The notes below the pieces were generated by a model. It was not told the DNA's origin, searched no databases, and saw nothing but the letters and a program-made list of their open reading frames with translations. Below are positions 27,192 to 51,120 of a DNA stretch of 64,000 nt, piece by piece. The position numbers and the translations under genes are program-made. This stretch comes from a virus (lineage: Duplodnaviria; Caudoviricetes): IMG/VR virus record IMGVR_UViG_3300014204_000006, positions 1 to 64,000 of that record; one strand, 5' to 3'. Every line of letters starts with the position of its first letter. Position 1 is the first letter of the stretch.

Positions 27192-27770
27192 TTATGGTGA
27201 AGGAGAAACTGAAGGAGAAACTGAAGGTGATTTCGATGGGGACTTAGAAACTGAAGGAGAAACTGAAGGTGATTTCGATGGGGACTTAGAAACTGAAGGA
27301 GAAACTGAAGGTGATTTCGATGGGGATATTGAAGGTGATTTCGATGGAGAAACTGAGGGTGATTTTGATGGGGATATTGAAGGAGATTTGGATGAAGAAG
27401 GAGATATAGAAGATGAAGTAGAAGGAGATTTAGACGTAGAAGGTGAAAGAGAAGGAGAAATAGATGGTGATAAAGACGGAGAAAAGGATGGTGACGCTGA
27501 AATGTATGTTTGATGATACATTGTTATCCCTTCGTCTACAGAAACTCCTTCATGTAGTGTTCTATCTAACCCGACAAAAACTATTTCAGAACTATAAATT
27601 AATTGAGAACCTTGATATATATTTAAAAGTCCTTCTGATACCTCAGAATCAAAGGATAATTTATATGTGTTTCCAGAAACTATGCCTAGGTTTGATTGGT
27701 AAAAACAAGGCATACAAGCCATTAGGTTGCTTTCTGAAACGGTTATCTGATCAAAAACTAAAATATCCAT
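27192..27770 (-). CDS. Tail-associated protein with beta-sandwich fragment and C-terminal Ser-Pro repeat tract
   Basis: YQSNLGIVSGNTYKLSFD; ~100-aa (SPSx)n tail. Confidence 0.75.
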   Translation of the reverse strand: MDILVFDQITVSESNLMACMPCFYQSNLGIVSGNTYKLSFDSEVSEGLLNIYQGSQLIYSSEIVFVGLDRTLHEGVSVDEGITMYHQTYISASPSFSPSLSPSISPSLSPSTSKSPSTSSSISPSSSKSPSISPSKSPSVSPSKSPSISPSKSPSVSPSVSKSPSKSPSVSPSVSKSPSKSPSVSPSVSPSP

Positions 27771-27774
27771 AAAA

Positions 27775-28290
27775 TTATTCGGTAATATCCATTGTGTTAC
27801 CAGAGAATATTATTGAGGTTTGAATTAATCTACATAGTTGTTTGGATGAATCCCTCCACGATATTCTTATTTCCCTAGCCAGAGGGGGGCTCGGTATATT
27901 ACTTTTATCTATTGAATGTATTTTTAATGTGGAAACACCTTTTGAAACAGTCCCCTGAAGCTCATAATAATCACCGTCATCTAAGGCGACAAAACATTTC
28001 ATTGAATTCCCTCTTTGAGTCCTATTCACTATTGCTAATGGAGTTGAGAAAACTTCAAAACTTTGATTAAGCTGCAATTGCTGTGAGTCTGCTCTGAAAA
28101 ATATCGGGTCACCCTCATCTGTGGTCCCTGAAAGGAACTCTTTGACTGAAAAATTAGGCCCTGTTTCATCAGTTATTACCTCTTTTAAACTTATATTGTC
28201 CACAGATATATTCGCTGAATTACCATCAGATTTAAATAGGAGTAAATCTCCTGAGCTATCTGCTATAAATTTTAAGTCTATTGTAGCCAT
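27775..28290 (-). CDS. Probable C-terminal part of tail nozzle/stabilisation protein
   Basis: In frame with upstream gene across TAA-AAT; starts with ...SVDNISLKEV. Confidence 0.6.
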   Translation of the reverse strand: MATIDLKFIADSSGDLLLFKSDGNSANISVDNISLKEVITDETGPNFSVKEFLSGTTDEGDPIFFRADSQQLQLNQSFEVFSTPLAIVNRTQRGNSMKCFVALDDGDYYELQGTVSKGVSTLKIHSIDKSNIPSPPLAREIRISWRDSSKQLCRLIQTSIIFSGNTMDITE

Positions 28291-28293
28291 ATT

Positions 28294-29874
28294 TTAAGGT
28301 ATTAAAAGTGTCATATTATTAGAACTTTTATCCCATGGATCTGAATATTCCCATGAAGATACTGTGTCGGAAAAACTACCATCGTTTATTAATTCATCAC
28401 CTAAAACAGCATTTCTCCCTAAAGAGATAGAATTCATGGTCAATCTTTCTACCCCGGATGAATCTAAATATGTTTTAAACATTGTAGATGTCACATTTGT
28501 ATGTATGTACCAGTTTTGATCAGCAGTAGCATATTCTACACACACCTTTGGCAATACTTTCAGCAAAGACCCATCATTTTTATAGAGAGTGACATCTCCT
28601 ATTGTACAAAAGATACTTAATCCTTTAGACCCCATTGCTCCTGATTCAAGACCTGCTTTTGTCGCCCCGCCTATGTATCGCTCTATTTTGCGAGAAAGAA
28701 GGCTAGGGACTCCTCCGGATGTAACATATATTCCAGAATAATGGAGGAAATAAAGAGCTCCATTCTTTACATATCCATTTCTAGAGCAACATCCCACATT
28801 CATATCAAAATTTTCCAAGCTATAATCATTCCAGGTCATCAAAGCATTCCTATTGGCTATCATGAGAATATTCCCTATTGGCACCAACATAGTGATAGCA
28901 TCTTCATCTCCTCCTACTAATTTAAATGTATCATATTGCTTTACATCACGTCCTACTGAATAAGAGTTTGATACCCATCTATATTGTTTTTCTCCGGTAA
29001 AAGTGCCTGATATCCACAATTCATCAGCAGATAAAAAGGAGGAATAACCGCTTTCAAAGGTTACATCATAACTGTTGGCTGTAATACTTGATGAGTCTGC
29101 GTCTTTTATGGTTATAGACGCTATTTTATTGTTTCCACGATATATATCATATAGATTCATTCCAGTATCGGTATAAATATACTTTGTATCAGTAAGTTTT
29201 AATACCCATTCGTTATTACCATCTACAGAAGACAAATCACCATCTAACAATGAAATCAACCCCATTGGATATGAAGATCTAAGTACTGTTGTCTTTAACT
29301 CGTTCCCATCATTATCACAATAATCTGCTACGTATATTCTACTTTTGTATGATGCTATGTTTTTAGATATTGGGCTATTGAATAATGATCCTGGAGAAGC
29401 TGATGTAGACATATTTGTGGTGACACCTATTTCACCAATTATCATCCTATTTGGATCTACTCCGTTTACCATTAATATATTGCTGTCTACATTGGCAAAG
29501 GTGCAATTATTAAGCGATAAATTAATCGCCATATCGTTATTTATTTTTGTCCATACATCACTAGTATTAAGATAATAAATATTTGCGGTTACTCCGTCTA
29601 CAGAGGAAACTCTTAATAATCCCTTGCTTAAAGAGCCTCCGTCTTCAAAGTAGGTCAACCCGTAGTCTCCTTCACTTATAAAAACTGCTCCATCATTATC
29701 TGTTCCTACTACTGTTTGCCCCTCTCTTTTATCTAGAACTCCTATAACCTTAGAACGAGCATTCTCAGCATGAATAAGCTCAGTTTTAGTGGCAATAGTT
29801 TGCTGAACCGTTGAGTTTACTCCGTCAAAGTACTGAATAGATATTCTATTTTGATTTGTTCCTGATTCTTTCAT
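28294..29874 (-). CDS. Tail nozzle/stabilisation protein (P22 gp10/T7 gp12-like by position and beta-rich composition)
   Basis: FDGVNS...AENAR...KREG N-terminus, GCCSRNG..LYFL..SGIY; follows adaptor gene. Confidence 0.6.
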   Translation of the reverse strand: MKESGTNQNRISIQYFDGVNSTVQQTIATKTELIHAENARSKVIGVLDKREGQTVVGTDNDGAVFISEGDYGLTYFEDGGSLSKGLLRVSSVDGVTANIYYLNTSDVWTKINNDMAINLSLNNCTFANVDSNILMVNGVDPNRMIIGEIGVTTNMSTSASPGSLFNSPISKNIASYKSRIYVADYCDNDGNELKTTVLRSSYPMGLISLLDGDLSSVDGNNEWVLKLTDTKYIYTDTGMNLYDIYRGNNKIASITIKDADSSSITANSYDVTFESGYSSFLSADELWISGTFTGEKQYRWVSNSYSVGRDVKQYDTFKLVGGDEDAITMLVPIGNILMIANRNALMTWNDYSLENFDMNVGCCSRNGYVKNGALYFLHYSGIYVTSGGVPSLLSRKIERYIGGATKAGLESGAMGSKGLSIFCTIGDVTLYKNDGSLLKVLPKVCVEYATADQNWYIHTNVTSTMFKTYLDSSGVERLTMNSISLGRNAVLGDELINDGSFSDTVSSWEYSDPWDKSSNNMTLLIP

Positions 29875-29879
29875 TATTT

Positions 29880-31025: not shown

Positions 31026-31055
31026 AATGTTTTAATCACATATTTTATTAATTTT

Positions 31056-31071
31056 AGTATAGCAAAGTACT
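31056..31071 (-). promoter_or_regulatory. Putative late promoter
   Basis: AGTACT-TTGC-TATACT. Confidence 0.65.
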
Positions 31072-33735
31072 TTAAAGGCCTCCATAAAAGTTGTCTGAAT
31101 ATATGGCGTCCCCTTGTGGCCTTCCTAGACTATACCCGTATGTTTTTCTGCTTAACAGTAATTCTTCTTCAACGCTTACGTCATCAAATAGGAATAACGG
31201 TATATATATTCCTAGAATTATTGTTTCTGATACAGCAACAGTTTCATACATATCTCCCGGATCCCATGGGCTAGGTGACACAGATGGGGATACTGAAGGA
31301 GAAGTTGATGAAGAAGGAGATATTGAAGGTGAAATTGAAGGTGATTTGCTGGGGGATAAAGAAGGGGACTTAGATATAGATGGAGATATCGATGGGGATG
31401 ATGAATATGATAACGATGGTGAAAATGAGGGAGAAATAGATGGAGACTTAGAAGCTGAAGGAGATATTGAAGGAGATTTTGATGATGAAGAAGATGGAGA
31501 TGCCGATGGGGATGATGAAACGCTTGGCGAAAGTGAAGGAGATATTGATGGAGATTTTGAGGATGAAATAGATGGCGAAATAGAAGAGCTCGGAGAAATA
31601 GAAGGAGATAATGATAGGCTGGGTGAATTTGAGGGAGAAAGAGAAACACTAGGTGAAAGTGAAGGAGATTTTGATATCGATGGTGACATGGACGGCGATA
31701 AAGAAACGCTTGGTGAAAGTGAAGGAGATATTGATATACTAGGAGACAATGAAGGGCTTATGCTTCCTGCGCTTGGGGAAACAGAAGGGGAAATTGACGT
31801 TGATGGTGAGATAGATTGACTTGGACTAAGGCTTTCTGATAAAGATGGTGAAAGCGATGGTGAGACCGATGGAGATGTGGAAATAGACGGAGAAGCTGAT
31901 GGAGACTCAGAAATAGATGGAGAAATTGATGGGGATTTTGATGGAGAAAGAGAAGGAGATTTAGACGTAGAAGGTGAAAGAGAAGGAGAAATAGAAGGTG
32001 ATTTTGATGTTGAAATAGATGAGGATGGAGAAATAGAAGGCGATGGAGAAACCGAAGGAGAAATAGAAGGAGATATAGAAATAGAAGGTGATAATGATGT
32101 AGAAGGACTTGGAGATAATGACTCGGATGGGCTCAAAGATGGGCTAATAGAGTAATAAGTGACATAAGAATCAACCATAGATTGATCCCAATATCTATTT
32201 TCTACGAAAAATTCGTCAACATATCCCTTGTACCAATTATTGAAAGTTCCTGCGTATTCTCCACATCCTATTTTTAATGTAGAGGTTGCACTACTAGCTA
32301 ATGGTTCGAAACTTGTAGCGGTTTTTTGTAGAATACCATTGACATACAGGTATGCGGTCAGGGTTGTTGCATTCCATGAACAAATCACATTATTCCATTG
32401 AGATACCCTATAGGGGGCAACACACGAAAAGATGTTATTATACGGTATAACAAAAGAAATAGTATTGTTTGAATTTTTGTTTAAATACCAGTCTCGGGGG
32501 CCAGTGTATTTTTCTCTATCTACAATTCTTCCAGTAGTCTTAGATTCGTCTGCTTTGAACCAAATAGAAAAAGTAAAGCTTTGATCTCCATAGAAATCAA
32601 AATTACTTCCTGAACCACAAATAATATATGAAGAGCTTCCATTGAAGGAAACTCCGTTTCCCACCACCCCATAACTATTGTTATAGCTTAATGCTGCTCC
32701 ACTTGAAGAAATAGAATTTCCAGAACTGTCAGTCAAGTCTCCTTGGAAATGTAACAAAACTTTAGTTATTGAACTTCCTGCTCCAGAATATTGTTCAGGC
32801 ATGACAGCCTTAGATGGAGAAAGAGAACTAGACGGGGATATTGATTGTGATTTTGATGGAGACAATGATGATGACGGAGAAACAGAAGGAGATGGGGAGG
32901 TGGATGGAGATACAGAAAAACCAACAGATGATGATTCTAATAATATTCCACCTCCATTTTCTTGCAACAGCCTCCCTCCATCTTCCATTAATAAAAAAGA
33001 ATTTCCTCCTGTAGGAGCATTAGGATTCAATGAAGATGCTATCCTCATCTGCATATCTAGATATGATGAAACATTATCCCATGGATTAGGTAAAACATCA
33101 TCTGTAAGATAAAAATAATCAAAAGCAGTTAGAGAATTTATTATAAAAGCATCAGTGAGTGCCGTGTCTATTTCCGGCCCCGGCTGGTTATAAACAACAT
33201 AACCCTTCCTGCTTTTTGGTATATTTGGGTTAACAACATCAGGCCCTATTTTACCGTTAGATTCATACACAATACAAACATCTGGAGCATTAGGCAATGT
33301 GAACCATGAATCATCTTCTTCTGTTAAATGAGCATTTGCAACTATAAAATTTGTTTTTGTTCTAGTATATTGTGCTATTTGAGTATATCCAGACAACCCA
33401 AAAGTAGCATAATCCCATTCATCAAAGAATATACCATCTAAATCTGGATAGTATTCAAACCATCTAGCTACCTCGGTGTTTATTTCTGCTACACTTCTGT
33501 TCCAAGAAGTAGTATATACATAGCCAATTACCCTAATATTGTGGTTATGACACTCTTCAATAAAGGTATGATATAAAGGGCTATTATAGTTTAATGATGG
33601 CCATATTGTGGTACTAACTCCTACAGCTAATATTAGGTTAGCATTTCTATACTGGTCAGCTAACGATATAACTCTTTGTATGTTAGCGGTGCTGACATTA
33701 ATAGTCTCATAGAATGGCACTATTATTCCTACCAT
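31072..33735 (-). CDS. Fibre/spike protein: spherulin-4 (GH135)-like domain + LamG-like domain + Ser-Pro repeats
   Basis: IIVPFY, VIGYVYT, DGIFFDE, YLTDDVLPNPWD; WNNVICSW..LYVNG..LKIG..GYVDEF; ~295-aa SP tract. Confidence 0.8.
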   Translation of the reverse strand: MVGIIVPFYETINVSTANIQRVISLADQYRNANLILAVGVSTTIWPSLNYNSPLYHTFIEECHNHNIRVIGYVYTTSWNRSVAEINTEVARWFEYYPDLDGIFFDEWDYATFGLSGYTQIAQYTRTKTNFIVANAHLTEEDDSWFTLPNAPDVCIVYESNGKIGPDVVNPNIPKSRKGYVVYNQPGPEIDTALTDAFIINSLTAFDYFYLTDDVLPNPWDNVSSYLDMQMRIASSLNPNAPTGGNSFLLMEDGGRLLQENGGGILLESSSVGFSVSPSTSPSPSVSPSSSLSPSKSQSISPSSSLSPSKAVMPEQYSGAGSSITKVLLHFQGDLTDSSGNSISSSGAALSYNNSYGVVGNGVSFNGSSSYIICGSGSNFDFYGDQSFTFSIWFKADESKTTGRIVDREKYTGPRDWYLNKNSNNTISFVIPYNNIFSCVAPYRVSQWNNVICSWNATTLTAYLYVNGILQKTATSFEPLASSATSTLKIGCGEYAGTFNNWYKGYVDEFFVENRYWDQSMVDSYVTYYSISPSLSPSESLSPSPSTSLSPSISISPSISPSVSPSPSISPSSSISTSKSPSISPSLSPSTSKSPSLSPSKSPSISPSISESPSASPSISTSPSVSPSLSPSLSESLSPSQSISPSTSISPSVSPSAGSISPSLSPSISISPSLSPSVSLSPSMSPSISKSPSLSPSVSLSPSNSPSLSLSPSISPSSSISPSISSSKSPSISPSLSPSVSSSPSASPSSSSSKSPSISPSASKSPSISPSFSPSLSYSSSPSISPSISKSPSLSPSKSPSISPSISPSSSTSPSVSPSVSPSPWDPGDMYETVAVSETIILGIYIPLFLFDDVSVEEELLLSRKTYGYSLGRPQGDAIYSDNFYGGL

Positions 33736-33752
33736 ATTTTTTTTCTATTTCA

Positions 33753-35363
33753 TTATGATGGAGAAACCGATGGAGAGTCTGATGGAGAAGTCGAATATGA
33801 ATATGAAGGACTGGCTGATGGACTGGCAGAATAATAAGTGAGATATGCATCAACTGCAGTTTGATCCCAATATGCTTTTTCAATGAAGAAATCATCCATA
33901 TATCCTTTATAGAAGGCCTCTCTAACATTGTTGCTTTCCCCGCAACCAATATACATAGTTGCTCCAGTAGAAGACATCTGTGTACTGCCGTCACTAGACC
34001 CCGCAAGATATCCATTGACATAAACATATGCCGTTTGAGTCAAAGCGTTAAAAACACACATCAATTGATTCCATACATTAATCCTATAATTTGCAGTTAC
34101 ATTTCTATCCGATACTAAAAAGGCAAGTGTTCCACTTCCGGTTTTAGATATTTTCCATGATCCATCAACCCCAGTATTATATCTTCCCATAAAAACACCA
34201 GTACTTTTGCTTTCGTCTGCTTTAAACCAAAAAGAACATGTGAAGTGATTTGAGCCATATATGTTGATTGAAGGGCCAATTACATACGATGCAGCCCCAT
34301 CAAAGCTTATCCCGTTATTTATAACTCCATAACTATTTGAATAAGATACGCCACTTGGATAACTTGTGAATCCATTTCCAGAACTATCAGTACAATTTCC
34401 TTGAAAATGAAGTAAGCATTGAGTTATTGATGTTCCTGCCCCAGCGTATTCTTGAGGCATAACTTCTTTTGAAGGAGATAGTGAAGACGAAGGTGAAACT
34501 GAAGGTGATTTTGAAGGAGATAGTGAAGACGAAGGTGAAACTGAAGGTGATTTTGAAGGAGATAGTGAAGACGAAGGTGAAACTGAAGGTGATTTTGAAG
34601 GAGATAGTGAAATAGACACAGAAGGAGAAATTGAAGATGAAGGTGAAATTGAAGGTGATTTTGAAGAAGATGGTGAAATTGAAGGGGAAATTGATGATGA
34701 AACTGAAGGGGAAATTGATGATGAAACTGAGGGGGAGATTGATAGAGATGGAGATAAAGAAGGAGAATATGAAGAAGACTCAGATGGGCTTGTGCTCCCG
34801 ACGCTAGGTGATACAGAATTGCTTATTGATGGAGAAGAAGAGTCACTCAATGATATCGAAGGAGATAATGATGGACTATTGCTTGATCCAGCACTAGGAG
34901 ATTGAGATGGGGATATTGAAGGGGATAATGAGTTGGATATAGAAGGAGAGATAGATAACGATAATGAAACAGATGGTGATATAGAAGGAGATAATGATGA
35001 ACTAGGGGAAACAGAGAGGGAAGTTGAACCTGAAGGGGAGATAGATGGAGATAAAGAGACACTAGGAGAAACAGAAGGTGATTTTGAAAAAGATAAAGAA
35101 GGGGAGATAGATAATGACAAAGATGATGACGGTGAAATTGAAGGAGAAATTGAAGGAGAAATTGAAGGAGAAATTGAAGGAGACTTTGACGGACTCAAAG
35201 AAGAACTAGGAGAAACAGAAGGAGAACTAGAAATAGCACCAATTCCGGAATTGACATCAGCAAGCGTAGAATAATATGTTACTCCATCTCTAACAACAGG
35301 AATCAAGTCTGTTCCTAACAACGGTGTTAAATAAGAAAGTTCAGATATTTTTAAGTCTGCCAT
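33753..35363 (-). CDS. Fibre protein: MADLKISEL-type N-terminal domain, Ser-Pro repeats, LamG-like domain
   Basis: ~250-aa SP tract; LamG region paralogous to neighbouring gene. Confidence 0.78.
   Translation of the reverse strand: MADLKISELSYLTPLLGTDLIPVVRDGVTYYSTLADVNSGIGAISSSPSVSPSSSLSPSKSPSISPSISPSISPSISPSSSLSLSISPSLSFSKSPSVSPSVSLSPSISPSGSTSLSVSPSSSLSPSISPSVSLSLSISPSISNSLSPSISPSQSPSAGSSNSPSLSPSISLSDSSSPSISNSVSPSVGSTSPSESSSYSPSLSPSLSISPSVSSSISPSVSSSISPSISPSSSKSPSISPSSSISPSVSISLSPSKSPSVSPSSSLSPSKSPSVSPSSSLSPSKSPSVSPSSSLSPSKEVMPQEYAGAGTSITQCLLHFQGNCTDSSGNGFTSYPSGVSYSNSYGVINNGISFDGAASYVIGPSINIYGSNHFTCSFWFKADESKSTGVFMGRYNTGVDGSWKISKTGSGTLAFLVSDRNVTANYRINVWNQLMCVFNALTQTAYVYVNGYLAGSSDGSTQMSSTGATMYIGCGESNNVREAFYKGYMDDFFIEKAYWDQTAVDAYLTYYSASPSASPSYSYSTSPSDSPSVSPS
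34471..34610. repeat. 3.3 x exact 42-bp tandem repeat within SP tract
   Basis: GAAGGAGATAGTGAAGACGAAGGTGAAACTGAAGGTGATTTT repeated. Confidence 0.9.
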
Positions 35364-35393
35364 ATATGTTTTTTAGTATTATTACTTCAACTA

Positions 35394-35409
35394 ATTATAC
35401 ATAAGTACT
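35394..35409 (-). promoter_or_regulatory. Putative late promoter
   Basis: AGTACT-TATG-TATAAT. Confidence 0.65.
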
Positions 35410-35417
35410 TCCAAGTC

Positions 35418-38222: not shown

Positions 38223-38228
38223 TTTTTT

Positions 38229-39448: not shown

Positions 39449-39460
39449 ATTATTTTATAA

Positions 39461-40150: not shown

Positions 40151-40154
40151 AGCA

Positions 40155-40766: not shown

Positions 40767-40786
40767 TTTTTTATATTATTTAATAA

Positions 40787-42141: not shown

Positions 42142-42143
42142 GA

Positions 42144-42776: not shown

Positions 42777-43554
42777 CATCACAATTAAAATTACATTTTT
42801 TACAAATAGGGATATCAAAATCTAAATTTTTATGTTTCTCCCTCATCCATTCATAACTATCCCAAATCTCCTTTAAAGTGTTTTTATTGACATCCCCCAA
42901 GATCATCTCTCCATCCCAGTCCATGCAACATGGGACAACTCTCCCATCCCATAAAATGGTCATATGTTGCAATAATGAGTAACAAGGTTTTTTCCCTCCT
43001 ATTTTAGCAATAGAGGATTTTTCTCCTCCTGCCCAATTCAGAAAAGGTCTCATCTTTCTTTTAGTTCCCCACATTTTTTTGAATAACTCTGTTTCATGTT
43101 GATTATCTTCTGTTACTACCATAGATACTTTTACATTGAAAGGTGCTTTTTCTACCAGTTCTTTTATGTTTTTTAAACAAGTGTCATAATCCGGCCTTCT
43201 CATTACTTTATCATAAGTCTCTTTTGTGGCTCCATTGAAACTACAGTTGACATATCTTATATTTTTATATTTTATCAACCTATCCACATCTAAAAATTCT
43301 CCATTAGTATATAATACTGTCTGGACACCCTCTTTTTCCATATAATCAAGCCATTTCCACATCCTAGAAAATACAAATGGCTCTCCATTTAAGAATGGAG
43401 AAAAGAAAGCTGCCTTCATTTCCTTTCCTTCCTTAATTATTTTGTGGAACAATTCATCGCTCATTTCTCCCATAGGACGTGTCATTTTTTCTCTAGGACA
43501 GAATGTGCACCTAGAATTGCAGGAGGTACTGGACTCAAACTGAATTTTTGGCAT
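42769..43554 (-). CDS. Radical SAM / SPASM domain protein
   Basis: CNSRCTFC, NGEP, YTNG, C...WDGRVVPCC..D..LG..IW..CKKC. Confidence 0.9.
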   Translation of the reverse strand: MPKIQFESSTSCNSRCTFCPREKMTRPMGEMSDELFHKIIKEGKEMKAAFFSPFLNGEPFVFSRMWKWLDYMEKEGVQTVLYTNGEFLDVDRLIKYKNIRYVNCSFNGATKETYDKVMRRPDYDTCLKNIKELVEKAPFNVKVSMVVTEDNQHETELFKKMWGTKRKMRPFLNWAGGEKSSIAKIGGKKPCYSLLQHMTILWDGRVVPCCMDWDGEMILGDVNKNTLKEIWDSYEWMREKHKNLDFDIPICKKCNFNCDGK

Positions 43555-43559
43555 ATTTT

Positions 43560-44087
43560 TTATATTTTATGGAATTTAGCATACATTAATGTTCTAGTAG
43601 ATTCTATTTTTCCCTCTAATTTAAACCCTTGTTTTTCCACCATATCTACCAATTCTTGCTCTGTCCAATCCTCGAATTGCAGTTCATCCTTCCATTTCTG
43701 CTTTGTAGGGACCGCTAGGTATAAAAACATAGATATTACCCTTCTAGCCTCTTTTACAGCCTCCTGAGGGAATTCCAGGTGTTCTAGAGTGTCTCCCATG
43801 AAGGCTGACTCAAAATGTTCATTGTCAAATGGAAGGTCGTATGCATCAGCCAATATAACGTTCACACCCTTTTCTCTAGCTATTTTTACCCCATCTAGCT
43901 CATTGTCTATCCCTATTGCCCCTATTTTTGATGTTATGAGCCCATCTCCGGCTCCTATATCTAATACATTCTTTTCCTTTATCCAAGCCACGATTCTATC
44001 TACATGCGTTTTATATCTGGATTTTTCATCATACCATCTCCAATGATAATCACCGTTCCTCCTGTATTTGTTAAAGTCTTTTCCCAT
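43560..44087 (-). CDS. Class I SAM methyltransferase
   Basis: VLDIGAGDG, DAYDLPF, LEHL. Confidence 0.85.
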   Translation of the reverse strand: MGKDFNKYRRNGDYHWRWYDEKSRYKTHVDRIVAWIKEKNVLDIGAGDGLITSKIGAIGIDNELDGVKIAREKGVNVILADAYDLPFDNEHFESAFMGDTLEHLEFPQEAVKEARRVISMFLYLAVPTKQKWKDELQFEDWTEQELVDMVEKQGFKLEGKIESTRTLMYAKFHKI

Positions 44088-44092
44088 AATTT

Positions 44093-44794
44093 TTATCTAA
44101 ATTTTTTAACGAGTTCCTCTGATCTCCCCCAAAATGGTATCTCATATGCTCTCACAAATGACATTCTCTTCTTATGAGTCTGCTGTATAATCTCAGTCCC
44201 ATAATCATGGCTAAACTGGACAATGGGAATAGTAGTCCAAAACTCTACCATCTTTCTCTCTTTTAATTTTAATATCTTATCCGTCCTAGTCTTCCCCAAT
44301 TCTCCGGTATATTCCCCGGTTCCTTTAGGATATTTAGCGAATCTTTCTTCCAATGCCTCTATCATCAATTCTCTAGGGGCTATCAGGGAAAAATTACCCA
44401 CCCTGTGTCGCCATGAATATGTAGGTTCTCCGAAGGTATACAGCGACCACCTGGTCATATTATAAGCAAAGGTATCCATAGGCGGCCTAAAGTCTATGAA
44501 ATGATCCTGGCAATAAAGAACATCATCCTCAGCAATGGCAACAAATGGAGTTTTGGCTAATTTTGCTCCTTTCAGCATTTGCCAATAAATGTTTGAAGAA
44601 CTTTCCGGTTCCGTCTGAATAATATTGTAATGACCAAAGTCCATTGGTTCTTTAGATATAGTTATAATAGGGTAATCCCCCACAGCATTATATAATATCT
44701 TTTTATGATACTCGGCCCACTGTTCAGGAACTTTGTTGACGGTCAAAAATAATACCGTCAAATCTCCTTTTTTACCTCTATTTTCTCTGCCCAT
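44093..44794 (-). CDS. GT-A-like glycosyltransferase (paralogue 3)
   Basis: FLTVN, PIITIS, AIAEDDVLY, HF.DFRP..FAYN. Confidence 0.65.
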   Translation of the reverse strand: MGRENRGKKGDLTVLFLTVNKVPEQWAEYHKKILYNAVGDYPIITISKEPMDFGHYNIIQTEPESSSNIYWQMLKGAKLAKTPFVAIAEDDVLYCQDHFIDFRPPMDTFAYNMTRWSLYTFGEPTYSWRHRVGNFSLIAPRELMIEALEERFAKYPKGTGEYTGELGKTRTDKILKLKERKMVEFWTTIPIVQFSHDYGTEIIQQTHKKRMSFVRAYEIPFWGRSEELVKKFR

Positions 44795-44795
44795 A

Positions 44796-45377
44796 TTATT
44801 TTTTGATTATTGCCCATCCATATCTTGGCAATTCTATAAAATTAATGTTATTTTTCTTGGAAAAGTGATTGACTGCCTTAATAACTCCAAACTCTACTCC
44901 CAACCTATTGGTCCATTTGACATAGTCATCCCCGGCCAGGATACCGCCTGATTTTACTTTAGGATACCAGTCTTTTATGTCCTTTAAACACCCTTCGAAA
45001 GAATGATCACCGTCTATATAGACAAAATCAAAAAAATTATCATCAAACATTTTAACAGCATCAAAAGAATATTCTCTATAAATCTCCACAAACCTAAATT
45101 TCATCATCTCTTCCACAAAATTATTATATTGATCATCCAATTGTTTCTGAGAATAGCCTATATCATTTCGGCAAATACTTTTATCAGCATGCCAAGAATC
45201 TACCGCTACCGCTAAAAAGGGGGAATGTTCTATCATTTTTTTGAAGTTTTCACCTTTTCTAATGCCTATTTCACACACTGATTCACACCTATACTTTTCC
45301 ATAAAAGGTCTCCATATCCTTCTCTTATTTACTATTTTGAGTTCTTTTAAGTCTTGTATAATTTTATTGGATTCCAT
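44796..45377 (-). CDS. Class I SAM methyltransferase (Methyltransf_24-like)
   Basis: CEIGIRKG, VDSW, DFVYIDGDHS, KSGGILAGDDY. Confidence 0.85.
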   Translation of the reverse strand: MESNKIIQDLKELKIVNKRRIWRPFMEKYRCESVCEIGIRKGENFKKMIEHSPFLAVAVDSWHADKSICRNDIGYSQKQLDDQYNNFVEEMMKFRFVEIYREYSFDAVKMFDDNFFDFVYIDGDHSFEGCLKDIKDWYPKVKSGGILAGDDYVKWTNRLGVEFGVIKAVNHFSKKNNINFIELPRYGWAIIKK

Positions 45378-46083
45378 GTAATTTAAATATATTTATTAAT
45401 CTTTTAGACATAATAGGCATCTTAAGATTGCTTTTTCCATACATGAATATATCTAAAATCAGACTCCTATTCGGGTGGAAATGGACTACTTTTATTGGTT
45501 TAATAGCCTTTTCATAATTTGAAACCACATTTCTTTGACCAAAGTTATAAGTGACATTCATTCTAACTATCCTAGTATAGATTTCTTCATCGTTATCCGT
45601 GAGCATCATCATAGCTGTCTCATCTTCAATGTTGTTGAAAATATGAGGTTTAGTATATTCAAATATATCTTTGGCAGTGTCCTTGAAGAAATAACTTCCT
45701 AGACACCATCTTTCTCTCCAACCATAATCCGTCAAGCCCAAGTCCTTGCCCTTTAATATTCCCATTACATCATCAAATACATTCATTTGGAAAGCATCAA
45801 TATCATGATTCCAATACCACTCGTTCTTTTCTATTAAACCGCCATCTATTAAAAATGGGATAATAGATGTCTTTATTGATCTAGGCCTACAGGCGCAAAA
45901 GTGCTCATCTCCCACAACGATAGATTTAACTCCATGATATTCATAATCAAAGTTTGTTACAAGGAGAATATCATATGGTTTCCATCCAAGATCCAGACTG
46001 TTATCTATTTGAACTTTTATCAGTAATCCATACTCTTCGTTGAAGCATTTATCCTTACTGATATACACCATTAGGTTTTTCAT
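45364..46083 (-). CDS. Putative nucleotide-sugar transferase (GT-A, DxD)
   Basis: WNHDIDAF, GSYFF, MNVTYNF, VVHFHP. Confidence 0.55.
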   Translation of the reverse strand: MKNLMVYISKDKCFNEEYGLLIKVQIDNSLDLGWKPYDILLVTNFDYEYHGVKSIVVGDEHFCACRPRSIKTSIIPFLIDGGLIEKNEWYWNHDIDAFQMNVFDDVMGILKGKDLGLTDYGWRERWCLGSYFFKDTAKDIFEYTKPHIFNNIEDETAMMMLTDNDEEIYTRIVRMNVTYNFGQRNVVSNYEKAIKPIKVVHFHPNRSLILDIFMYGKSNLKMPIMSKRLINIFKLHGIQ

Positions 46084-47006
46084 AGGGATATATAATTATT
46101 TTTTAAATATTCCTCAAGACACACTCTCCAATCTCTTATTAAATATGGATTCATATCTTTCAGTTCTTTGTTACTCATTTTTTCAGAATAAGGCCTATTA
46201 GCAAAATATTCTTTTTTAAAATATTTAGAGGAAACCACCTTTAATTTTACCTTCTTGCTCAAATCCAATAATTTCAATATTTCCTTTGCTACATCATATC
46301 TGGAACCACCCCCATCACAAGTGGCATTAACTGTTCCGTAGAAGTTATCATTCAATAAATAATGGATAACCTTAGCCAAATCATAGGTATATGTAGGGGT
46401 ACCCAACTTATCCTTAACTACACATAATTCCTTTGACCCATTAATAATCTGATCTATAATTTTTTTAACAAATTTTTTGTCCTTTTTATGTCCTCCTCCT
46501 ATCATCCACCCGGCTCTTACAATGATATGTTTATGAACATCCATAACGGCTAAATCACCGGCATATTTAGATGAGGCATAAATATTGATAGGATTTGGGT
46601 AATCAAACTCATTATATTTCTCTTTTTTTCCATCAAAAATTCCCGCTGAAGAGATGTAAACAATCGGTATTTTATACTTTTTAGCCATTAGGCACATATT
46701 TTGAGTCCCCATGAAGTTTGTCTCATAAGCCTCTTCTATGTGTTTTTCACAATATTCTAGATCAGTAAGGGCTGCCAAGTGAATTATAACATGAGGTTTT
46801 ATATTTTCGCATGCGTGCTTTACCCATTTTAGGCTCCTCACATCTAAGTATTTAAGCCATTTCTCATTGACATCCATATCCGTAGCATAAACATTATATT
46901 TATCCTTTAATTCATGATAAACAGCTTCTCCCAACATACCTCCGCATCCGGTTATCAATATCCGTGTATTTTTGTTCATATTCATAGTTTTTACCACTTG
47001 GCCCAC
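46080..47006 (-). CDS. rfbD: dTDP-4-dehydrorhamnose reductase-like SDR
   Basis: ILITGCGGMLG, IHLAALT...CE, YISS, YASSK, GTPTYTYDLA, RPYS. Confidence 0.85.
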   Translation of the reverse strand: MGQVVKTMNMNKNTRILITGCGGMLGEAVYHELKDKYNVYATDMDVNEKWLKYLDVRSLKWVKHACENIKPHVIIHLAALTDLEYCEKHIEEAYETNFMGTQNMCLMAKKYKIPIVYISSAGIFDGKKEKYNEFDYPNPINIYASSKYAGDLAVMDVHKHIIVRAGWMIGGGHKKDKKFVKKIIDQIINGSKELCVVKDKLGTPTYTYDLAKVIHYLLNDNFYGTVNATCDGGGSRYDVAKEILKLLDLSKKVKLKVVSSKYFKKEYFANRPYSEKMSNKELKDMNPYLIRDWRVCLEEYLKNNYISL

Positions 47007-47806
47007 TTGGGGAGAAGTTCGTTAGTATAATAATCTTCCCATACTTTAAGGGAATAAGTATATCCTTCGTTGCAATTAGCTCTATTCTCCGGAGATCCTC
47101 CATTATGGGTCCTGGCAAAACTCCTATGTTTATGAGCAAACCAAGTTTTTTTGTTAACCATCAGTTTACCTCCATTTTTCCATGTTTTCATACAAACCTC
47201 TACAGAATCCTGGATTAATGGCCCATAACCCTCTACCTGCAACTCTCCAATGTGTTCGTCCCACCATTTTCTAGGGATTATCCACATGCTCCCTTGCATA
47301 GCCTGACTTTCTAAGATAGGAACATTTTCAAACTTTTTAGCTCTACTATCCCATCTCTGCCCGGAAAATTTTCGCACTCCCGGTTCTACGTTTTGGATCA
47401 CCAATTTTTCGCAATCCACAGGATGGTGCAATTTTGTATCCATCACCTCCCATTTTATTGGGTCCAAGAAAAAACGCCTAGCAGTCATTATCTGGTTAGG
47501 CTCACAATCTTCAGTCAAAATTCGGTCATATCCCTGACCAAACATGCAGTGTTCATCTAACCTCATGAAGAACTCTCCCTTTGAAACAGCGATTCCTGCA
47601 TTTATAGCCCCTCTCATACCCCTATTTTGACCCAGGTGCACTACTTTGACCCTGGGGTCTTGTATTATAGGCTTTTCCGGCCAATACCCATCTAGAACGG
47701 GGATTATTTCTAATTGATCACCTAACTCTGACTTTTCCAACAAATCGTTTATCGTCTTATGCAACATTGGATCTTTGTAACTTGGTATTATTACACTTAA
47801 TTTCAT
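46991..47806 (-). CDS. GT-A glycosyltransferase, polypeptide GalNAc-transferase-like
   Basis: LSVIIPSY, RGMRGAINAG, RLDEHC (DxH), QGSMW, EVCMKTWKNGGKLMV...FAHKHR. Confidence 0.82.
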   Translation of the reverse strand: MKLSVIIPSYKDPMLHKTINDLLEKSELGDQLEIIPVLDGYWPEKPIIQDPRVKVVHLGQNRGMRGAINAGIAVSKGEFFMRLDEHCMFGQGYDRILTEDCEPNQIMTARRFFLDPIKWEVMDTKLHHPVDCEKLVIQNVEPGVRKFSGQRWDSRAKKFENVPILESQAMQGSMWIIPRKWWDEHIGELQVEGYGPLIQDSVEVCMKTWKNGGKLMVNKKTWFAHKHRSFARTHNGGSPENRANCNEGYTYSLKVWEDYYTNELLPKWAKW

Positions 47807-47861
47807 GTTATTTTTAATTTAATTATTTAATATTCTAGCCATCCTCCCAATTAATATTATA

Positions 47862-47877
47862 ATAATAACACAGTTCC
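47862..47877 (-). promoter_or_regulatory. Putative late promoter inside glycosylation cluster
   Basis: GGAACT-GTGT-TATTAT. Confidence 0.5.
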
Positions 47878-47881
47878 TACA

Positions 47882-48676
47882 TTAGGAAGTCATCCTCCTT
47901 AATGCCTCCTTGAACGTTATTTTTCCCTCTAGGAACTGTTTTGGAAGACTTATAGGGTATTGGACACCTGTTTGTCTATCAATATGCTTCACAAAAATTG
48001 TAGTATCTACCAAAAATGGGAACTCTTTCTTCTGGTATTTAGACCATCCGGCTTTTACAAAAATATTATCGTCTTTAAGACGTTTGCACCAAGCCAGGTC
48101 TGACGTTCCGGACTGATTCATCCATCCCCCAGTTAAAGGATCAATGTAACTCTCTGAAGGATTATCAAACACCCTTCTTGTGACCACTCCGTTCACCATA
48201 TATTCCGGAGACTCTTTCCATAATTCACGGATTATAGATCCGTGGATAAGGGTAAATCCAAAGGGTATCCCGTCAACCCAAACTTTATCGCCTAGTTTCC
48301 AGTCTGCGTAGTATCCCTGCCCCATTCCCCTGTACAAAATCGGTTCAGGGGGCACAGATTTGGTAAAATAAAGCCCGGATACTATGGGGACATTCCCTCT
48401 AATCATGTATTCATTAAGTTTCACTAAGGCGTTAAGAGGGGGCAAATTATCATCTTCCCAACTAAGGAACCACTCCGATTCTTGTTCTACTACAATCTTT
48501 GCAGTTAAATTCTCTGCATCTGCCAATTGATAACCTAGGGGAGCATATGAGTTCATAAACTGGTGCACATCTACCAGGCTAAAATTGCATGGGATTGTTT
48601 GACCGAATCTGGCATTTACCCATTCAAATCTTACATTTCCTAATGTTGGAGTCCCTATTATTAACCTATTTTTCAT
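47882..48676 (-). CDS. GT2-like glycosyltransferase
   Basis: IGTPTLG, FLSWEDD, IVSGLYF, GFTLIH, SDLAWC, VKHI. Confidence 0.75.
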   Translation of the reverse strand: MKNRLIIGTPTLGNVRFEWVNARFGQTIPCNFSLVDVHQFMNSYAPLGYQLADAENLTAKIVVEQESEWFLSWEDDNLPPLNALVKLNEYMIRGNVPIVSGLYFTKSVPPEPILYRGMGQGYYADWKLGDKVWVDGIPFGFTLIHGSIIRELWKESPEYMVNGVVTRRVFDNPSESYIDPLTGGWMNQSGTSDLAWCKRLKDDNIFVKAGWSKYQKKEFPFLVDTTIFVKHIDRQTGVQYPISLPKQFLEGKITFKEALRRMTS

Positions 48677-48926
48677 CTATTTTTTCATAAGTTTTTTTAA
48701 AAATATCTGGCTTACATGGATAAAATTCTCCGTTGACTCCTCTTATTATCCAATCATTTTTAGAACATCTCATTTTTCCCTCCAACGTATTAATGTAAAA
48801 AGATTCGCTTCCCATTTCTCCAGGATCCCATTTATGTCCTATTAAGTTAATAACCTCATCCATCGACTGTTTTGTCGATAAAAATTGTACTGCATCAACA
48901 ACTACCGGTTTTTTTCTAAATTTCAT
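48666..48926 (-). CDS. Widespread small phage protein (KKPVV.EA.Q / TLEG / FYPCKPDIF family)
   Basis: MKFRKKPVVVDAVQF...INTLEG...GEFYPCKPDIFKKTYE; start approximate. Confidence 0.75.
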   Translation of the reverse strand: MKFRKKPVVVDAVQFLSTKQSMDEVINLIGHKWDPGEMGSESFYINTLEGKMRCSKNDWIIRGVNGEFYPCKPDIFKKTYEKIDEK

Positions 48927-48927
48927 A

Positions 48928-49563
48928 TTATTTTGATAAACATTTATAACTTTTATCAACCTTTCTTTTCTCTAAAGCCAACTCAACAAAACCATTTTTA
49001 TCATAAAAACACCTTAAAATCTTCCAGGGCTTAGGCCTATATATGGTGTAAAGATTGTAATAGTTTCCTGCGCTATCTTTTACCAATGGATCAAAATACG
49101 CCATTGTGACATGAGATATAGGATTAACGTGGGTTGGATCTTGCCAAAAGCCTGTTGAACCAGCATACGGAAATGATGCTATAACCTGGCCACCTGGCTT
49201 TGTAATGCGCCATAATTCGTCCATAAAACGTACAAAACCGCCTAGGAATTCGTGTTCTCCAACATAGTTAGAGATATCCTTTGCGGTTACAATTTTTTTA
49301 TCTAAAAGTAGATTTATAAGCCCTGATAGTCTTGGATCTGATGATGCTGGATTAATGTGCTCAAGTAAGTGCGATGCTACAACAACGTCTGCTACTTCTG
49401 ATGGGATATTCTTCCATGGATATAAAGATAGATTTTGGACCACATCAACTCCATCTAATTTTCTGAAATCTACACCTATCGACCCTGGTCTTTTATTTTC
49501 TCCTGAACCTAAATCGATTGTGATCATTCCTTTCTTTTCCCAAATAGTTGACTTCTTTCTCAT
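48928..49563 (-). CDS. Class I SAM methyltransferase
   Basis: IDLGSG, SHLLEH, ELWRITKPGG, QDPTH. Confidence 0.85.
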   Translation of the reverse strand: MRKKSTIWEKKGMITIDLGSGENKRPGSIGVDFRKLDGVDVVQNLSLYPWKNIPSEVADVVVASHLLEHINPASSDPRLSGLINLLLDKKIVTAKDISNYVGEHEFLGGFVRFMDELWRITKPGGQVIASFPYAGSTGFWQDPTHVNPISHVTMAYFDPLVKDSAGNYYNLYTIYRPKPWKILRCFYDKNGFVELALEKRKVDKSYKCLSK

Positions 49564-49592
49564 ATCTAATTTTTTATTTATTATCTAATTTC

Positions 49593-49621
49593 ATTATGTT
49601 CTTAGAGTTGCTATTTGTCAA
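49593..49621 (-). promoter_or_regulatory. Sigma70-type promoter heading the glycosylation cluster
   Basis: TTGACA-N17-CATAAT; CTTGACAAATAG identical to site at 8172. Confidence 0.6.
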
Positions 49622-49630
49622 GAGTGTATC

Positions 49631-49656
49631 AAAAAACCCCATTTTATTGGGGTTTT
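49631..49656 (-). terminator. Intrinsic terminator
   Basis: AAAACCCCA-loop-TGGGGTTTTTT after the 166-aa gene. Confidence 0.7.
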
Positions 49657-49668
49657 ACAACAATATTT

Positions 49669-50169
49669 TTAAGAAAAGCGGATTTGATATGATCCCTGAA
49701 TCGCCTGGTTCGTTTGTAGAACAGAACTCGCAAAAGTATTTCCTGCAAAAATAGTCCCGGCCTGAGATGTAGAAGAATGATTAATAAGTCCAATATTTGT
49801 AATGGTGTGAGGAGCAGTATAGACATTAGAATTTAATGTAAATGCAAATTGTAATGTTTTTGATGCTATAACAGTCGGAGTAACCGCACAGCGAGTACCT
49901 GCTACATCTGTTATTTCACCATCCAAGGATGTGGCAGTGGCCCCGGGGGCCGTGCCCTCTCCTAGCATGGCATGAGTAACCTGTTTTGATCCAGCAATGC
50001 CTCCTAACGTCATACATAAATATTGAGAAAATCCATCATTGGTTATCTGATTTTCATTCCAACCGGAATCGCCTACAACTTTACCATTTTCACATATTTG
50101 TAACTTAAAGAATCCTCTGGCCTTTATGCCTTCTGACTTTCCGCTTTTTTTCTTTTTTAATTTTGCCAT
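49669..50169 (-). CDS. Virion structural protein (fibre-attachment-like)
   Basis: ENQITNDG...MLGEGT.P.AT.TSL.GEI...ITNIGL pattern typical of fibre N-terminal domains. Confidence 0.55.
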   Translation of the reverse strand: MAKLKKKKSGKSEGIKARGFFKLQICENGKVVGDSGWNENQITNDGFSQYLCMTLGGIAGSKQVTHAMLGEGTAPGATATSLDGEITDVAGTRCAVTPTVIASKTLQFAFTLNSNVYTAPHTITNIGLINHSSTSQAGTIFAGNTFASSVLQTNQAIQGSYQIRFS

Positions 50170-50199
50170 ATTACCTTATTTTAAGTTATTAAATAATGC

Positions 50200-51120
50200 T
50201 TATCCTAATGAAGGAGAAACCGAAGGAGAAGGGGATGTTGATGGAGAAATAGAAGGTGAAGTAGATGATGATGGAGAAATTGAAGGAGATTTTGATGGAG
50301 AAAGTGAAGGTGATTTGGAAGGGGAAAGTGAAACTGAAGGGGAGACAGAAGGTGAAATTGAGGGTGAAAGTGAAATTGAAGGGGAGACAGAAGGTGATTT
50401 AGACGGTGATAATGAAGGTGATAATGAAGGTGATAATGAAGGTGATTTAGAAACAGAAGGAGAAATTGACGGAGACAATGAAGCTGAAGGGGAAACAGAT
50501 GGTGATGGAGATGGACTAGTAGAAACTCCCACCAAATCAACTGAGGTTGTATCAGATGATTTCGGATTTACAACCAAGGATTGAGTTCCTACAACATTAA
50601 CTGAGCCCATGGTCATCGATGTAGAGGATTTTTCCAAAACCCATAAAGACAAAGGTCCGTATGGTATAGAAGTATCCGAAACAGAATATATTTGAACTCT
50701 ATTAATAAAAAATTTAGCAGTTCCGGCCTCCCATCTTATAGTAAATTCTACATTAATTCCATTCCAATCGCTATTCCATTCTAAATCAGATGATTCTGTC
50801 GTGACTCCTTTATTTGATGTTTGACAATTAAGAGTGTCAGTAATAGAAAATCTGATATAATCAGATCCATCTGAAGAAGAAACGCCAAATAGGCGATTAT
50901 CTCCTGCAGTGGGAGATCCTGGTATAGTAAGATTATAAGTTATTTCTCCTTTAACAAAATCTGAAAAATGGACCATTACTGAAGCTATCCCTGATCCTGT
51001 ATATACGGCAATTCTGCCAAAGGCATTTATAGCGGGAGTACCTGAAATAACTCTCCATGAGTTGGTATCAAGACCTTGTCTGAATGGATCGTACTTAAAA
51101 CTCTTTAATATTTCTGACAT
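50200..51120 (-). CDS. Lectin-like beta-sandwich protein with C-terminal Ser-Pro repeats
   Basis: FTIRWEAGTAKFFIN; ~105-aa SP tail. Confidence 0.7.
   Translation of the reverse strand: MSEILKSFKYDPFRQGLDTNSWRVISGTPAINAFGRIAVYTGSGIASVMVHFSDFVKGEITYNLTIPGSPTAGDNRLFGVSSSDGSDYIRFSITDTLNCQTSNKGVTTESSDLEWNSDWNGINVEFTIRWEAGTAKFFINRVQIYSVSDTSIPYGPLSLWVLEKSSTSMTMGSVNVVGTQSLVVNPKSSDTTSVDLVGVSTSPSPSPSVSPSASLSPSISPSVSKSPSLSPSLSPSLSPSKSPSVSPSISLSPSISPSVSPSVSLSPSKSPSLSPSKSPSISPSSSTSPSISPSTSPSPSVSPSLG

Follow-up and report, generated by a model that had tools for sequence, protein, structure and literature searches.

A candidate phage-encoded O-glycosylation system in which enzymes related to mucin-initiating transferases accompany Ser-Pro repeat proteins of the virion module

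The chlorovirus PBCV-1, for its capsid, and Mimivirus, for its fibrils, use their own cytoplasmic glycosylation machinery, which includes methyltransferase domains fused to glycosyltransferases (GTs) and the synthesis of 6-deoxyhexoses; the PBCV-1 glycans are N-linked at atypical sites. In the Pro/Thr/Ser linkers of secreted cellulases and the hydroxyproline-rich glycoproteins of plants and algae, O-glycans stiffen and extend low-complexity, Pro-containing spacers between globular domains and make them protease-resistant. In mycobacteriophages, one to a few GTs reportedly act on short C-terminal extensions of the capsid and tail-tube subunits. A work entitled 'Virion glycosylation influences mycobacteriophage immune recognition' is cited, by that title, in PMC12363180, PMC11256854 and others. 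The serine-rich repeat (SRR) adhesins of Gram-positive bacteria depend on GtfA/GtfB and an accessory Sec system (PMC7948813, PMC6973325). Within the incomplete coverage of the full-text literature, phage virion glycosylation was found only for mycobacteriophages, and nothing linked GT27-like enzymes or Ser-Pro repeat fibres to phages. Here we analyze the first 64 kb (the window) of IMG/VR virus record IMGVR_UViG_3300014204_000006, which is 101,483 bp long, has direct terminal repeats and is rated complete. The window holds a block of glycan-enzyme genes together with five genes that encode long (SPSx)n, or SP, tracts. We propose, with a probability of about 0.7 and on the strength of sequence comparisons, that the block encodes a cytoplasmic system by which the phage O-glycosylates proteins of its own virion, with the tracts as the dedicated acceptor domains.

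The SP-tract genes and the enzyme block, which a previous sequence-only reading of the window had already placed inside the structural module, lie in the late structural module of a podovirus-like phage. The block has the major head gene (52649) on one side and the gene of the SU10-type adaptor (29880) on the other (Table 1, which gives the positions of the genes named here). That reading had also reported five Ser-Pro repeat genes with several hundred serines, and these are indeed long minus-strand open reading frames (ORFs): 50200, 35418, 33753, 31072 and 27192. With tracts defined as 30-residue windows of at least 40% Ser and at least 12% Pro, the five genes contain 1,310 tract residues, including 638 Ser and 242 Pro, and the x position of SPSx is chiefly I, V, L or K. 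The SPSxSPS pattern, searched as DNA, occurs at 109 coding-strand sites in this genome versus 0 for a reversed-pattern control. The Ser codons of the tracts are varied (TCA, TCT, TCC, AGT, AGC and TCG), and Tandem Repeats Finder identifies a few perfect 42-nt duplications within otherwise degenerate 12-nt arrays; what is maintained is therefore the pattern of the protein, and some local expansion has been recent. Plus-strand 'GDxEGE' ORFs in this region were considered as genes and rejected, as they are the antisense mirror of the tracts and have no non-repeat domain.

The organization of the SP proteins suggests how they are built into the particle. The C-termini of 35418 and 31072 share the sequence '...YGY/YD.VPEYRPIGD...' (window 35418-35500 and 31072-31160), and the fibre genes of a relative that lacks the enzyme cassette (L116:8250-14734; L numbers denote loci) share the 'YGY.VPEYRPIGD' C-terminal end. 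This shared end is probably a virion-attachment piece, and the SP proteins would therefore be C-terminally anchored fibres in which the tracts form the stalk. The N-terminus of fibre 31072 is a Spherulin4 domain (PF12138, window 32956-33735), likely a glycan-active head borne on the SP stalk. A candidate acceptor peptide of the tract type would be SPSISPSVSPSK.

Two of the block enzymes, 38229 and 46991, are central to the proposal. When 38229 was searched as a single sequence, its only solved relatives were polypeptide N-acetylgalactosaminyltransferases (ppGalNAc-Ts; E 2.7e-5), and the top 13 matches of a 63-member family profile to solved structures were all ppGalNAc-Ts (E 3.6e-16 to 5.6e-12). 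The ppGalNAc-T alignment spans profile positions 4-256 of 291; other GT2 structures align over the first 80-120 positions only, the N-terminal nucleotide-binding part. D84, H86 and H249 are invariant among the 63 sequences, and in the alignment they fall on the metal ligands of GalNAc-T1, the DxH (in LDAHC) and the distal His (in VGHVFR). The region of the Gal/GalNAc-T motif (WGGENxE...W.CGG) also aligns, with K231, W233, G236 and G237 nearly invariant ('KTWLSGG') and the WGGE start appearing as 'WGSQG' or varying. We use the name GT27-like, and do not assign the family to GT27 itself, because its members have neither the lectin domain nor the membrane anchor and do not keep the WGGE start; 38229 and 46991 are single GT2 domains, and longer homologues bear a GT-A, methyltransferase or homing-endonuclease domain instead. 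Judged from these alignments, the likeness of the two GT2 enzymes is to GT27 in particular, a family of peptide O-glycosyltransferases. The family (alignment A2) comprises at least 5,413 clusters at 90% identity, and the source names of its members are only 'hypothetical' or 'glycosyltransferase involved in cell wall biosynthesis'.

GIY-YIG and NUMOD3 homing-endonuclease domains are in frame with the GT27-like gene in two relatives, and in a third relative of the same set it is interrupted by about 180 unmatched residues (positions listed for the set: L006:9989-12091, L068:15531-17261 and L024:9983-11515). Mobile endonucleases seem to target the gene.

The tracts and these enzymes occur together across phages. 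Of the 30 viral loci found to carry a 38229 homologue, at least 25 also encode, mostly in the next gene, a long-tract protein in which the repeat is (SPSx)n, (SPSASx)n or (TPSS)n; in the few loci where such a protein is missing or weak, the sequence ends less than 3 kb beyond the GT27-like gene. We then compared relatives with and without the gene, using 80 loci that encode a related major head protein and a second set of 80 loci anchored on 47882. The GT27-like gene is present in five of the 80 head-protein loci (L042, L047, L053, L067 and L068), and the homologue of 50200 has an SP tail in all five, versus none of about 30 without the gene; these roughly 30 tail-less homologues stop after the N-domain or run on into unrelated sequence. 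In the 47882-anchored set, SP tails are found in 2/2 loci with the gene and 0/78 without. The sequence-only reading had named co-occurrence as the observation that could refute it; among the relatives overall an SP tail accompanies the GT27-like gene in six of six loci, and about 100 loci that lack the gene have none, which strongly supports the reading. In a head-protein tree of 18 relatives, the enzyme trait switches at least four to five times and the tails follow, including in the close pairs L068/L063 and L047/L048. Six 47882-anchored loci and a distant capsid group (L084-L103) were examined as counter-examples and rejected, their S/P-rich ORFs being off-frame artefacts or a 40-aa SSSTP linker.

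Complete genomes show the same relationship. Four complete relatives of 97-102 kb have no member of the GT27-like family and 0 SPSxSPS sites, versus 109 in the genome studied here. In comparison with the complete relative G001 (L116/L112), all backbone genes are conserved, and in place of 31072-47806 (16.7 kb) G001 has 9.6 kb of different fibre genes. Conserved 50200 encodes 306 aa with an SP tail here versus 219 aa without a tail in G001, and conserved 27192 encodes 192 aa with an SP tail versus a tail-less open frame of 127-130 aa. Tails gained on proteins encoded outside the swapped block would be hard to explain unless the tails and the enzymes cooperate. The arrangement also recurs on a second backbone, beside the different head family phrog_267, where the head gene is followed by a small SP-tailed protein, the cassette and SP fibres.

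A scan in the reverse direction, with a DNA pattern of four SPSx units against viral contigs, gave matches that were mostly in other frames; 5 of the 80 loci examined carry a real SP tract or a GT27-like gene. Three of the four real SP tracts have a GT27-like gene within a few kb, and the fourth is a (SP)n dipeptide repeat on a 5-kb fragment; the remaining locus, L256, has a GT27-like gene, and its pattern match ends at the locus edge. A search of viral contigs with the 50200 N-domain, whose alignment is too variable for scanning, returned two loci only. Homologues of 50200 with proline-free (SSST)n tails were observed in L065:9177-17258, L069 and L070:12841-13884. At least in L065 the enzymes nearby differ from those of the window, and comprise a GT2-methyltransferase fusion, a weak GT1 match and a Methyltransf_24 protein; tail chemistry may track enzyme type. 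The enzyme folds, the family likeness, the anatomy of the tracts and their co-variation with the enzymes across phages are what the analysis shows.

Scans of the block with Pfam and PHROGs, relaxed thresholds included, and structural models bear out most of its earlier gene assignments. The RmlD-family and radical SAM/SPASM enzymes named in the sequence-only reading match Pfam RmlD_sub_bind (46080) and Radical_SAM plus SPASM (42769). Four of its five S-adenosylmethionine (SAM) methyltransferases are firm (40155, 44796, 41557 and 43560), and the fifth, 48928, is marginal at 18.5 bits against a cut-off of 21.2. Of its eight GTs seven are supported (38229, 46991, 39461, 42144, 44093, 40787 and 45364) and the eighth, 47882, is a possible GT, its language-model neighbours giving only a weak GT2/Anp1 lead. 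Six of the GT-like genes (39461, 40787, 42144, 44093, 45364 and 47882) had no Pfam or PHROG match. Profiles of the A1, A3 and A5 families gave no meaningful sequence match to solved structures, and the folds of A1 and A5 were therefore taken from models. When the A3 and A4 profiles were compared with those of A1 and A2, no match was significant. The paralogues 39461, 42144 and 44093 make up family A1, in which the ExD motif is invariant in an alignment of 39 members, and the AlphaFold model (predicted local distance difference test, pLDDT, 95.6) has 291 Foldseek matches at E <=0.001, exclusively to GT-A glycosyltransferases. The model of 40787 (43 homologues, pLDDT 96.8) matches GT-A enzymes only, namely SpsA, TarP, GnT-I and POMGnT1, and a stored model of 45364 has a template-modelling (TM) score of about 0.7 to the GT8 and PF03407 (Nucleotid_trans) clusters. 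All of the block GTs that can be modelled have the GT-A fold.

The composition of related loci argues that these enzymes work together. The core that travels between loci consists of the GT27-like enzyme, often in two copies, an A1-family GT and a Methyltransf_24 protein. In about 18 of the 30 loci the GT27-like and A1 domains form a single polypeptide, with A1 fused at the GT27-like C-terminus; the GT27-like and Methyltransf_24 domains are fused in L011, and the radical SAM/SPASM and A1 domains are fused in L053 as one 476-aa ORF (L053:17108-18535). These fusions argue for a single pathway that takes in initiation, extension and methylation as well as the radical SAM step. The window counterparts of the L053 fusion (42144-43554) are two genes in different frames with a 50-nt overlap. 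It is plausible that the glycan is methylated, given that Methyltransf_24 accompanies the GT27-like gene in most loci and is fused to it once. The accessory genes (RmlD, radical SAM, 45364, 40787 and the Methyltransf_11 genes) vary by locus and are each found in few loci, which suggests that the glycan differs among phages.

Transfer, the sugars, the order of the steps and the physical role are what we infer from these observations. Late in infection the soluble GT27-like enzymes 38229 and 46991 would place the first sugar on tract serines. Acceptor sites that GT27 enzymes are reported to favour have Pro at -1 or -3 as well as at +1 and +3 (PMC9950641). With a period of four residues, both serines of an SPSx unit fit this preference: the one that precedes Pro has prolines at +1 and, in the preceding unit, at -3, and the one that follows Pro has them at -1 and, in the next unit, at +3. 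The fit is an analogy with the animal enzymes and not evidence on the phage enzymes. The GT-A enzymes 39461, 42144, 44093, 40787 and 45364 would then lengthen the glycan sugar by sugar from nucleotide sugars, the RmlD-like reductase and the radical SAM enzyme would tailor a sugar precursor supplied by the host, and the TylF-like and other methyltransferases would O-methylate the sugars. The RmlD-like 46080 scores 192 bits with TIGR01214, below the equivalog cut-off of 224, and RmlA-type (PF00483) and RmlC (PF00908) proteins are absent from the whole 101-kb genome; any 6-deoxyhexose would therefore need host precursors, and rhamnose would be just one possible sugar. A cytoplasmic, stepwise route is favoured because the cassette proteins have no hydrophobic segment (maximum 19-residue hydropathy 1.13) and Pfam found no priming transferase, flippase, polymerase, ligase or oligosaccharyltransferase family among the block proteins. 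A dense cover of O-glycans would hold a single chain of low complexity in an extended form and make it resistant to proteases, and the product would be a bottle-brush stalk that keeps globular heads (Laminin G, Spherulin4 and beta-rich domains) off the particle, replacing the beta-repeat ('VSVFDSVSITE'-type) stalks of relatives. Roles in stiffness, protease shielding, adhesion or mimicry could follow from such a structure.

The GT27-like family also occurs outside viral contigs. In a prokaryote survey of a collection with one genome per species, it was found almost only in bins labelled as bacteria of the candidate phyla radiation (CPR), including Woesebacteria, WWE3, Levybacteria, Saccharibacteria, Paceibacterota and others. 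About half of the CPR-bin loci with a 38229-type gene have an SP protein downstream. One CPR-bin ORF contains an uninterrupted SP tract of 1,936 residues, and these ORFs have ends like those of phage fibres. At L151:9839-16927 and L119:10087-16926, from Collierbacteria and WWE3 bins, fibre-like ORFs of at least 2,363 and 2,280 residues lie beside the same cassette. These metagenome-bin taxon labels hint at the host group of the phages, and the loci may also be mis-binned phage contigs. A whole-genome pattern search, which cannot show a link, placed TPT-type and SPS-type tracts elsewhere in the genomes of five bacterial bins with the cassette.

Several observations weigh against the proposal that the block glycosylates the phage's own virion proteins. 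The enzymes 38229 and 46991 have no ricin-type lectin domain, no membrane anchor and no WGGE part of the GT27 motif, and the virion location of the five SP proteins is deduced from gene position and the shared fibre end. The independent transitions number only about four to five, too few for a formal sign test. In other CPR-bin loci the context looks cellular, with no SP gene to be found within 8 kb; the GT27-like family may also act on other acceptors. Finally, 47882 and 48928 are conserved in relatives that lack tracts (79% and 71% identical, respectively, to their homologues in cassette-less G001), and part of the block as first drawn therefore falls outside the system. The sequence-only reading had treated the roughly 11 kb from 38229 to 49563 as one system; this holds for most of the genes, and 47882 and 48928 belong instead to the conserved backbone. 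The products of 47882, 48928, 49669 and the 50200 N-domain (window 47882-50169) have 48-79% identity to proteins of a relative without the GT27-like gene or tracts, and together these genes form an older module that includes a probable methyltransferase and a possible glycosyltransferase.

The main competing explanation, which we consider unlikely, is that the cassette remodels the host envelope (in receptor masking, superinfection exclusion or surface-glycan conversion) and that the SP tracts are unmodified flexible linkers that travel with fibre genes. Several GTs, methyltransferases and an RmlD-like enzyme together resemble a surface-polysaccharide cluster, homologous cassettes occur in the cellular-looking CPR-bin contexts without an adjacent SP gene, and sources name family members for cell wall biosynthesis. 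However, the block encodes no membrane protein, priming phosphoglycosyltransferase, flippase, polymerase or ligase, and the best relatives of its key enzymes are peptide glycosyltransferases. Moreover, 50200 and 27192, outside the swapped block, are tailed only where the cassette is present, which hitch-hiking with fibre genes does not explain. It is no more probable that the tracts are modified by other chemistry or by host enzymes, for example by phosphorylation or radical-SAM cross-links, or that only the minimal core of GT27-like, A1 and Methyltransf_24 enzymes acts on them and the rest makes a separate product. SPASM enzymes often modify peptides, and the core alone is common to nearly all loci, the accessory genes each being present in few. 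Against this, accessory and core genes are intermixed along a single strand, the stop of one overlapping the start of the next, and the fusion in L053 of the radical SAM enzyme to a GT-A domain ties it to sugar chemistry. The 261-aa 42769 is also in the size range of sugar-acting twitch/SPASM enzymes, of which BtrN, at about 250 aa, is one.

Glycosylation of the bases of phage DNA, or synthesis of a soluble small molecule with no connection to the virion, is in our view a very improbable function of the enzymes. Phage GTs that modify DNA are well known, such as the alpha- and beta-glucosyltransferases of T4, which modify phage DNA; the block, however, lies in the late structural module, away from the replication genes on the other strand, contains no base-hydroxymethylating or DNA-binding enzyme, and would on this explanation have no reason to co-vary so tightly with SP tracts. 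A broader suggestion, which builds on virion glycosylation, is offered tentatively, at somewhat under even odds: the GT27-like family of phages and CPR bins may be a prokaryotic-virus counterpart of mucin-type glycosylation, building bottle-brush stalks on single tracts of 100 to about 1,900 residues, and perhaps the prokaryotic root of the animal family, with tails and enzymes exchanged as one unit, in which SPSx tails go with GT27-like enzymes and (SSST)n tails with other GTs.

The remaining features of the locus concern its layout (Table 1). The minus strand holds every gene from 16.1 kb onward in the window; this is the late strand, on which the block genes are densely packed with overlapping stops and starts, and the replication genes are on the other strand. 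Terminator-like sites are not in excess within the block, and promoter-like sites show no enrichment across the region. A sigma-70 consensus match of 11/12 positions, which is a consensus match only, lies at window 49593-49621 (minus) in the 105-nt gap upstream of 48928, the sole gap of such size at the head of the block. A 77-aa ORF (window 39218-39448, minus) is located inside the 242-nt gap that separates 39461 and 38229, and has homologues of 42-45% identity in three more cassette loci (L003, L030 and L031). A megablast search of the cassette against deposited phage genomes gave zero matches.

Table 1. Genes and Ser-Pro tracts of the window, in window coordinates; a single number is the position by which a gene is named.
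Feature	Position	Strand	Basis or remarks
Large terminase	58979	minus	
Portal	56731	minus	
Major head protein	52649	minus	phrog_1328
306-aa protein, three genes downstream of major head gene	50200-51120	minus	Conserved N-terminal domain aa 1-186; C-terminal SP tail aa 187-306
SP tract of 50200	50203-50562	minus	
Probable SAM methyltransferase	48928-49563	minus	Marginal Methyltransf_11, 18.5 bits vs cut-off 21.2
97-aa protein	48666-48959	minus	phrog_419
264-aa candidate glycosyltransferase, EDD motif	47882-48676	minus	Conserved backbone, outside swapped block
GT27-like glycosyltransferase 2, DEH motif	46991-47806	minus	Pfam GT2; 271 aa; paralogue of 38229
RmlD-family NAD(P)-dependent 4-ketoreductase of nucleotide-6-deoxyhexose synthesis	46080-47006	minus	RmlD_sub_bind E 8.7e-57
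GT8/Nucleotid_trans-like glycosyltransferase, DID motif	45364-46083	minus	Structural model
Methyltransf_24 (TylF-like) methyltransferase	44796-45377	minus	Pfam; paralogue of 40155
GT-A glycosyltransferase, ExD family (alignment A1)	44093-44794	minus	
Methyltransf_11 SAM methyltransferase	43560-44087	minus	Pfam
Short radical SAM + SPASM enzyme, 261 aa	42769-43554	minus	Pfam Radical_SAM + SPASM
GT-A glycosyltransferase, A1 family	42144-42818	minus	
Methyltransf_11 SAM methyltransferase	41557-42141	minus	Pfam
GT-A glycosyltransferase, DDD motif, second family without Pfam model (alignment A5)	40787-41557	minus	
Methyltransf_24 methyltransferase	40155-40766	minus	Pfam; member of core travelling with GT27-like gene
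GT-A glycosyltransferase, A1 family	39461-40150	minus	
GT27-like glycosyltransferase 1, DAH motif, distal His	38229-39218	minus	Pfam GT2; 329 aa; candidate initiating peptide O-glycosyltransferase
934-aa fibre-like protein	35418-38222	minus	Two SP tracts aa 354-489, 642-898; C-terminal 'YDVPEYRPIGD' end
SP tracts of 35418	35529-36299 and 36756-37163	minus	
536-aa fibre-like protein	33753-35363	minus	SP tract aa 33-308; Laminin_G_3; short SP end aa 505-536
SP tracts of 33753	33756-33851 and 34440-35267	minus	
887-aa fibre-like protein	31072-33735	minus	Spherulin4; SP aa 260-322; Laminin_G_3; SP aa 518-831; C-terminal anchor
SP tracts of 31072	31243-32184 and 32770-32958	minus	
SU10-type adaptor	29880	minus	
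192-aa tail-module protein	27192-27770	minus	Conserved N-terminal 90 aa; SP tail aa 84-192
SP tract of 27192	27195-27521	minus	
M23 peptidase	24797	minus	
Tape-measure-like protein	22002	minus	

Taken together, these data suggest that the particle is very probably decorated with sugar-coated stalks. If the proposal is correct, tailed phages make mucin-like glycoproteins with their own enzymes, phage virion glycosylation extends from a few actinobacteriophages to a widespread environmental group, and thousands of proteins generically annotated as 'GT2' acquire a function. Relatives of the animal mucin-initiating enzymes that are soluble and have no lectin domain, supplied along with an acceptor made of a simple repeat, would be useful for the study of peptide O-glycosylation and for bacterial glyco-engineering. 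Sister phages with and without the module would provide a natural experiment on what a glycan coat does for reach, stiffness, protease resistance, and surface sticking or evasion.

Comparison with described systems helps to define what is distinctive about this locus. The SRR adhesins share with it very long Ser-rich dipeptide-type repeats and dense cytoplasmic O-glycosylation by a dedicated multi-GT cluster before surface assembly; they differ in that the initiating GT-B pair GtfA/GtfB adds N-acetylglucosamine and export proceeds via SecA2/Y2, whereas the phage block has neither a GT-B nor a secretion gene (no match to Glycos_transf_1 or Sec families in any block gene with Pfam and PHROGs). 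En-bloc O-glycosylation of the PglL/PglO type and O-antigen or serotype-conversion clusters use lipid-linked membrane components, none of which is found in the phage block, and of the dTDP-L-rhamnose pathway (RmlABCD) the phage has only the sub-equivalog RmlD, without RmlA or RmlC. The cellulase linkers and hydroxyproline-rich glycoproteins depend on other enzymes and compartments, and the plant type needs prolyl hydroxylation, for which no enzyme was seen here.

Among viruses, the giant viruses likewise supply their own machinery, and their glycans coat fibrils or the capsid; unlike the phage studied here they infect eukaryotes, have no Ser-Pro repeat acceptors and use unrelated GT families. 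The mycobacteriophages show the same siting of phage GTs beside structural genes, taken to modify their own capsid or tail proteins. Here, by comparison, there are seven to eight GTs plus tailoring enzymes, repeat domains of 100-300 residues (to about 1,900 in related contigs) and an initiating family that is GT27-like. With eukaryotic mucin-type O-glycosylation (GT27) the phage system shares kinship to the same catalytic domain over its full length, with the DxH and distal His ligands kept, as well as long Ser/Pro-rich tandem-repeat acceptors in which Pro is spaced as GT27 prefers; soluble GT-A enzymes that add sugars stepwise are presumably shared too. It differs in having no ricin-type lectin domain, membrane anchor or Golgi, in not keeping WGGE, in acceptors that are almost pure Ser rather than Thr-rich as in eukaryotic mucins, and in being encoded by bacterial viruses and CPR-binned contigs. 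The term 'mucin-type', used in the sequence-only reading, is thus apt for the likeness of the enzymes and the architecture of the acceptors, and does not extend to an N-acetylgalactosamine linkage. Glycosylation of a virus particle by virus-encoded enzymes is already known; here the candidate initiating family is GT27-like, to our knowledge not reported before from phages, and the proposed acceptor is a dedicated mucin-like domain.

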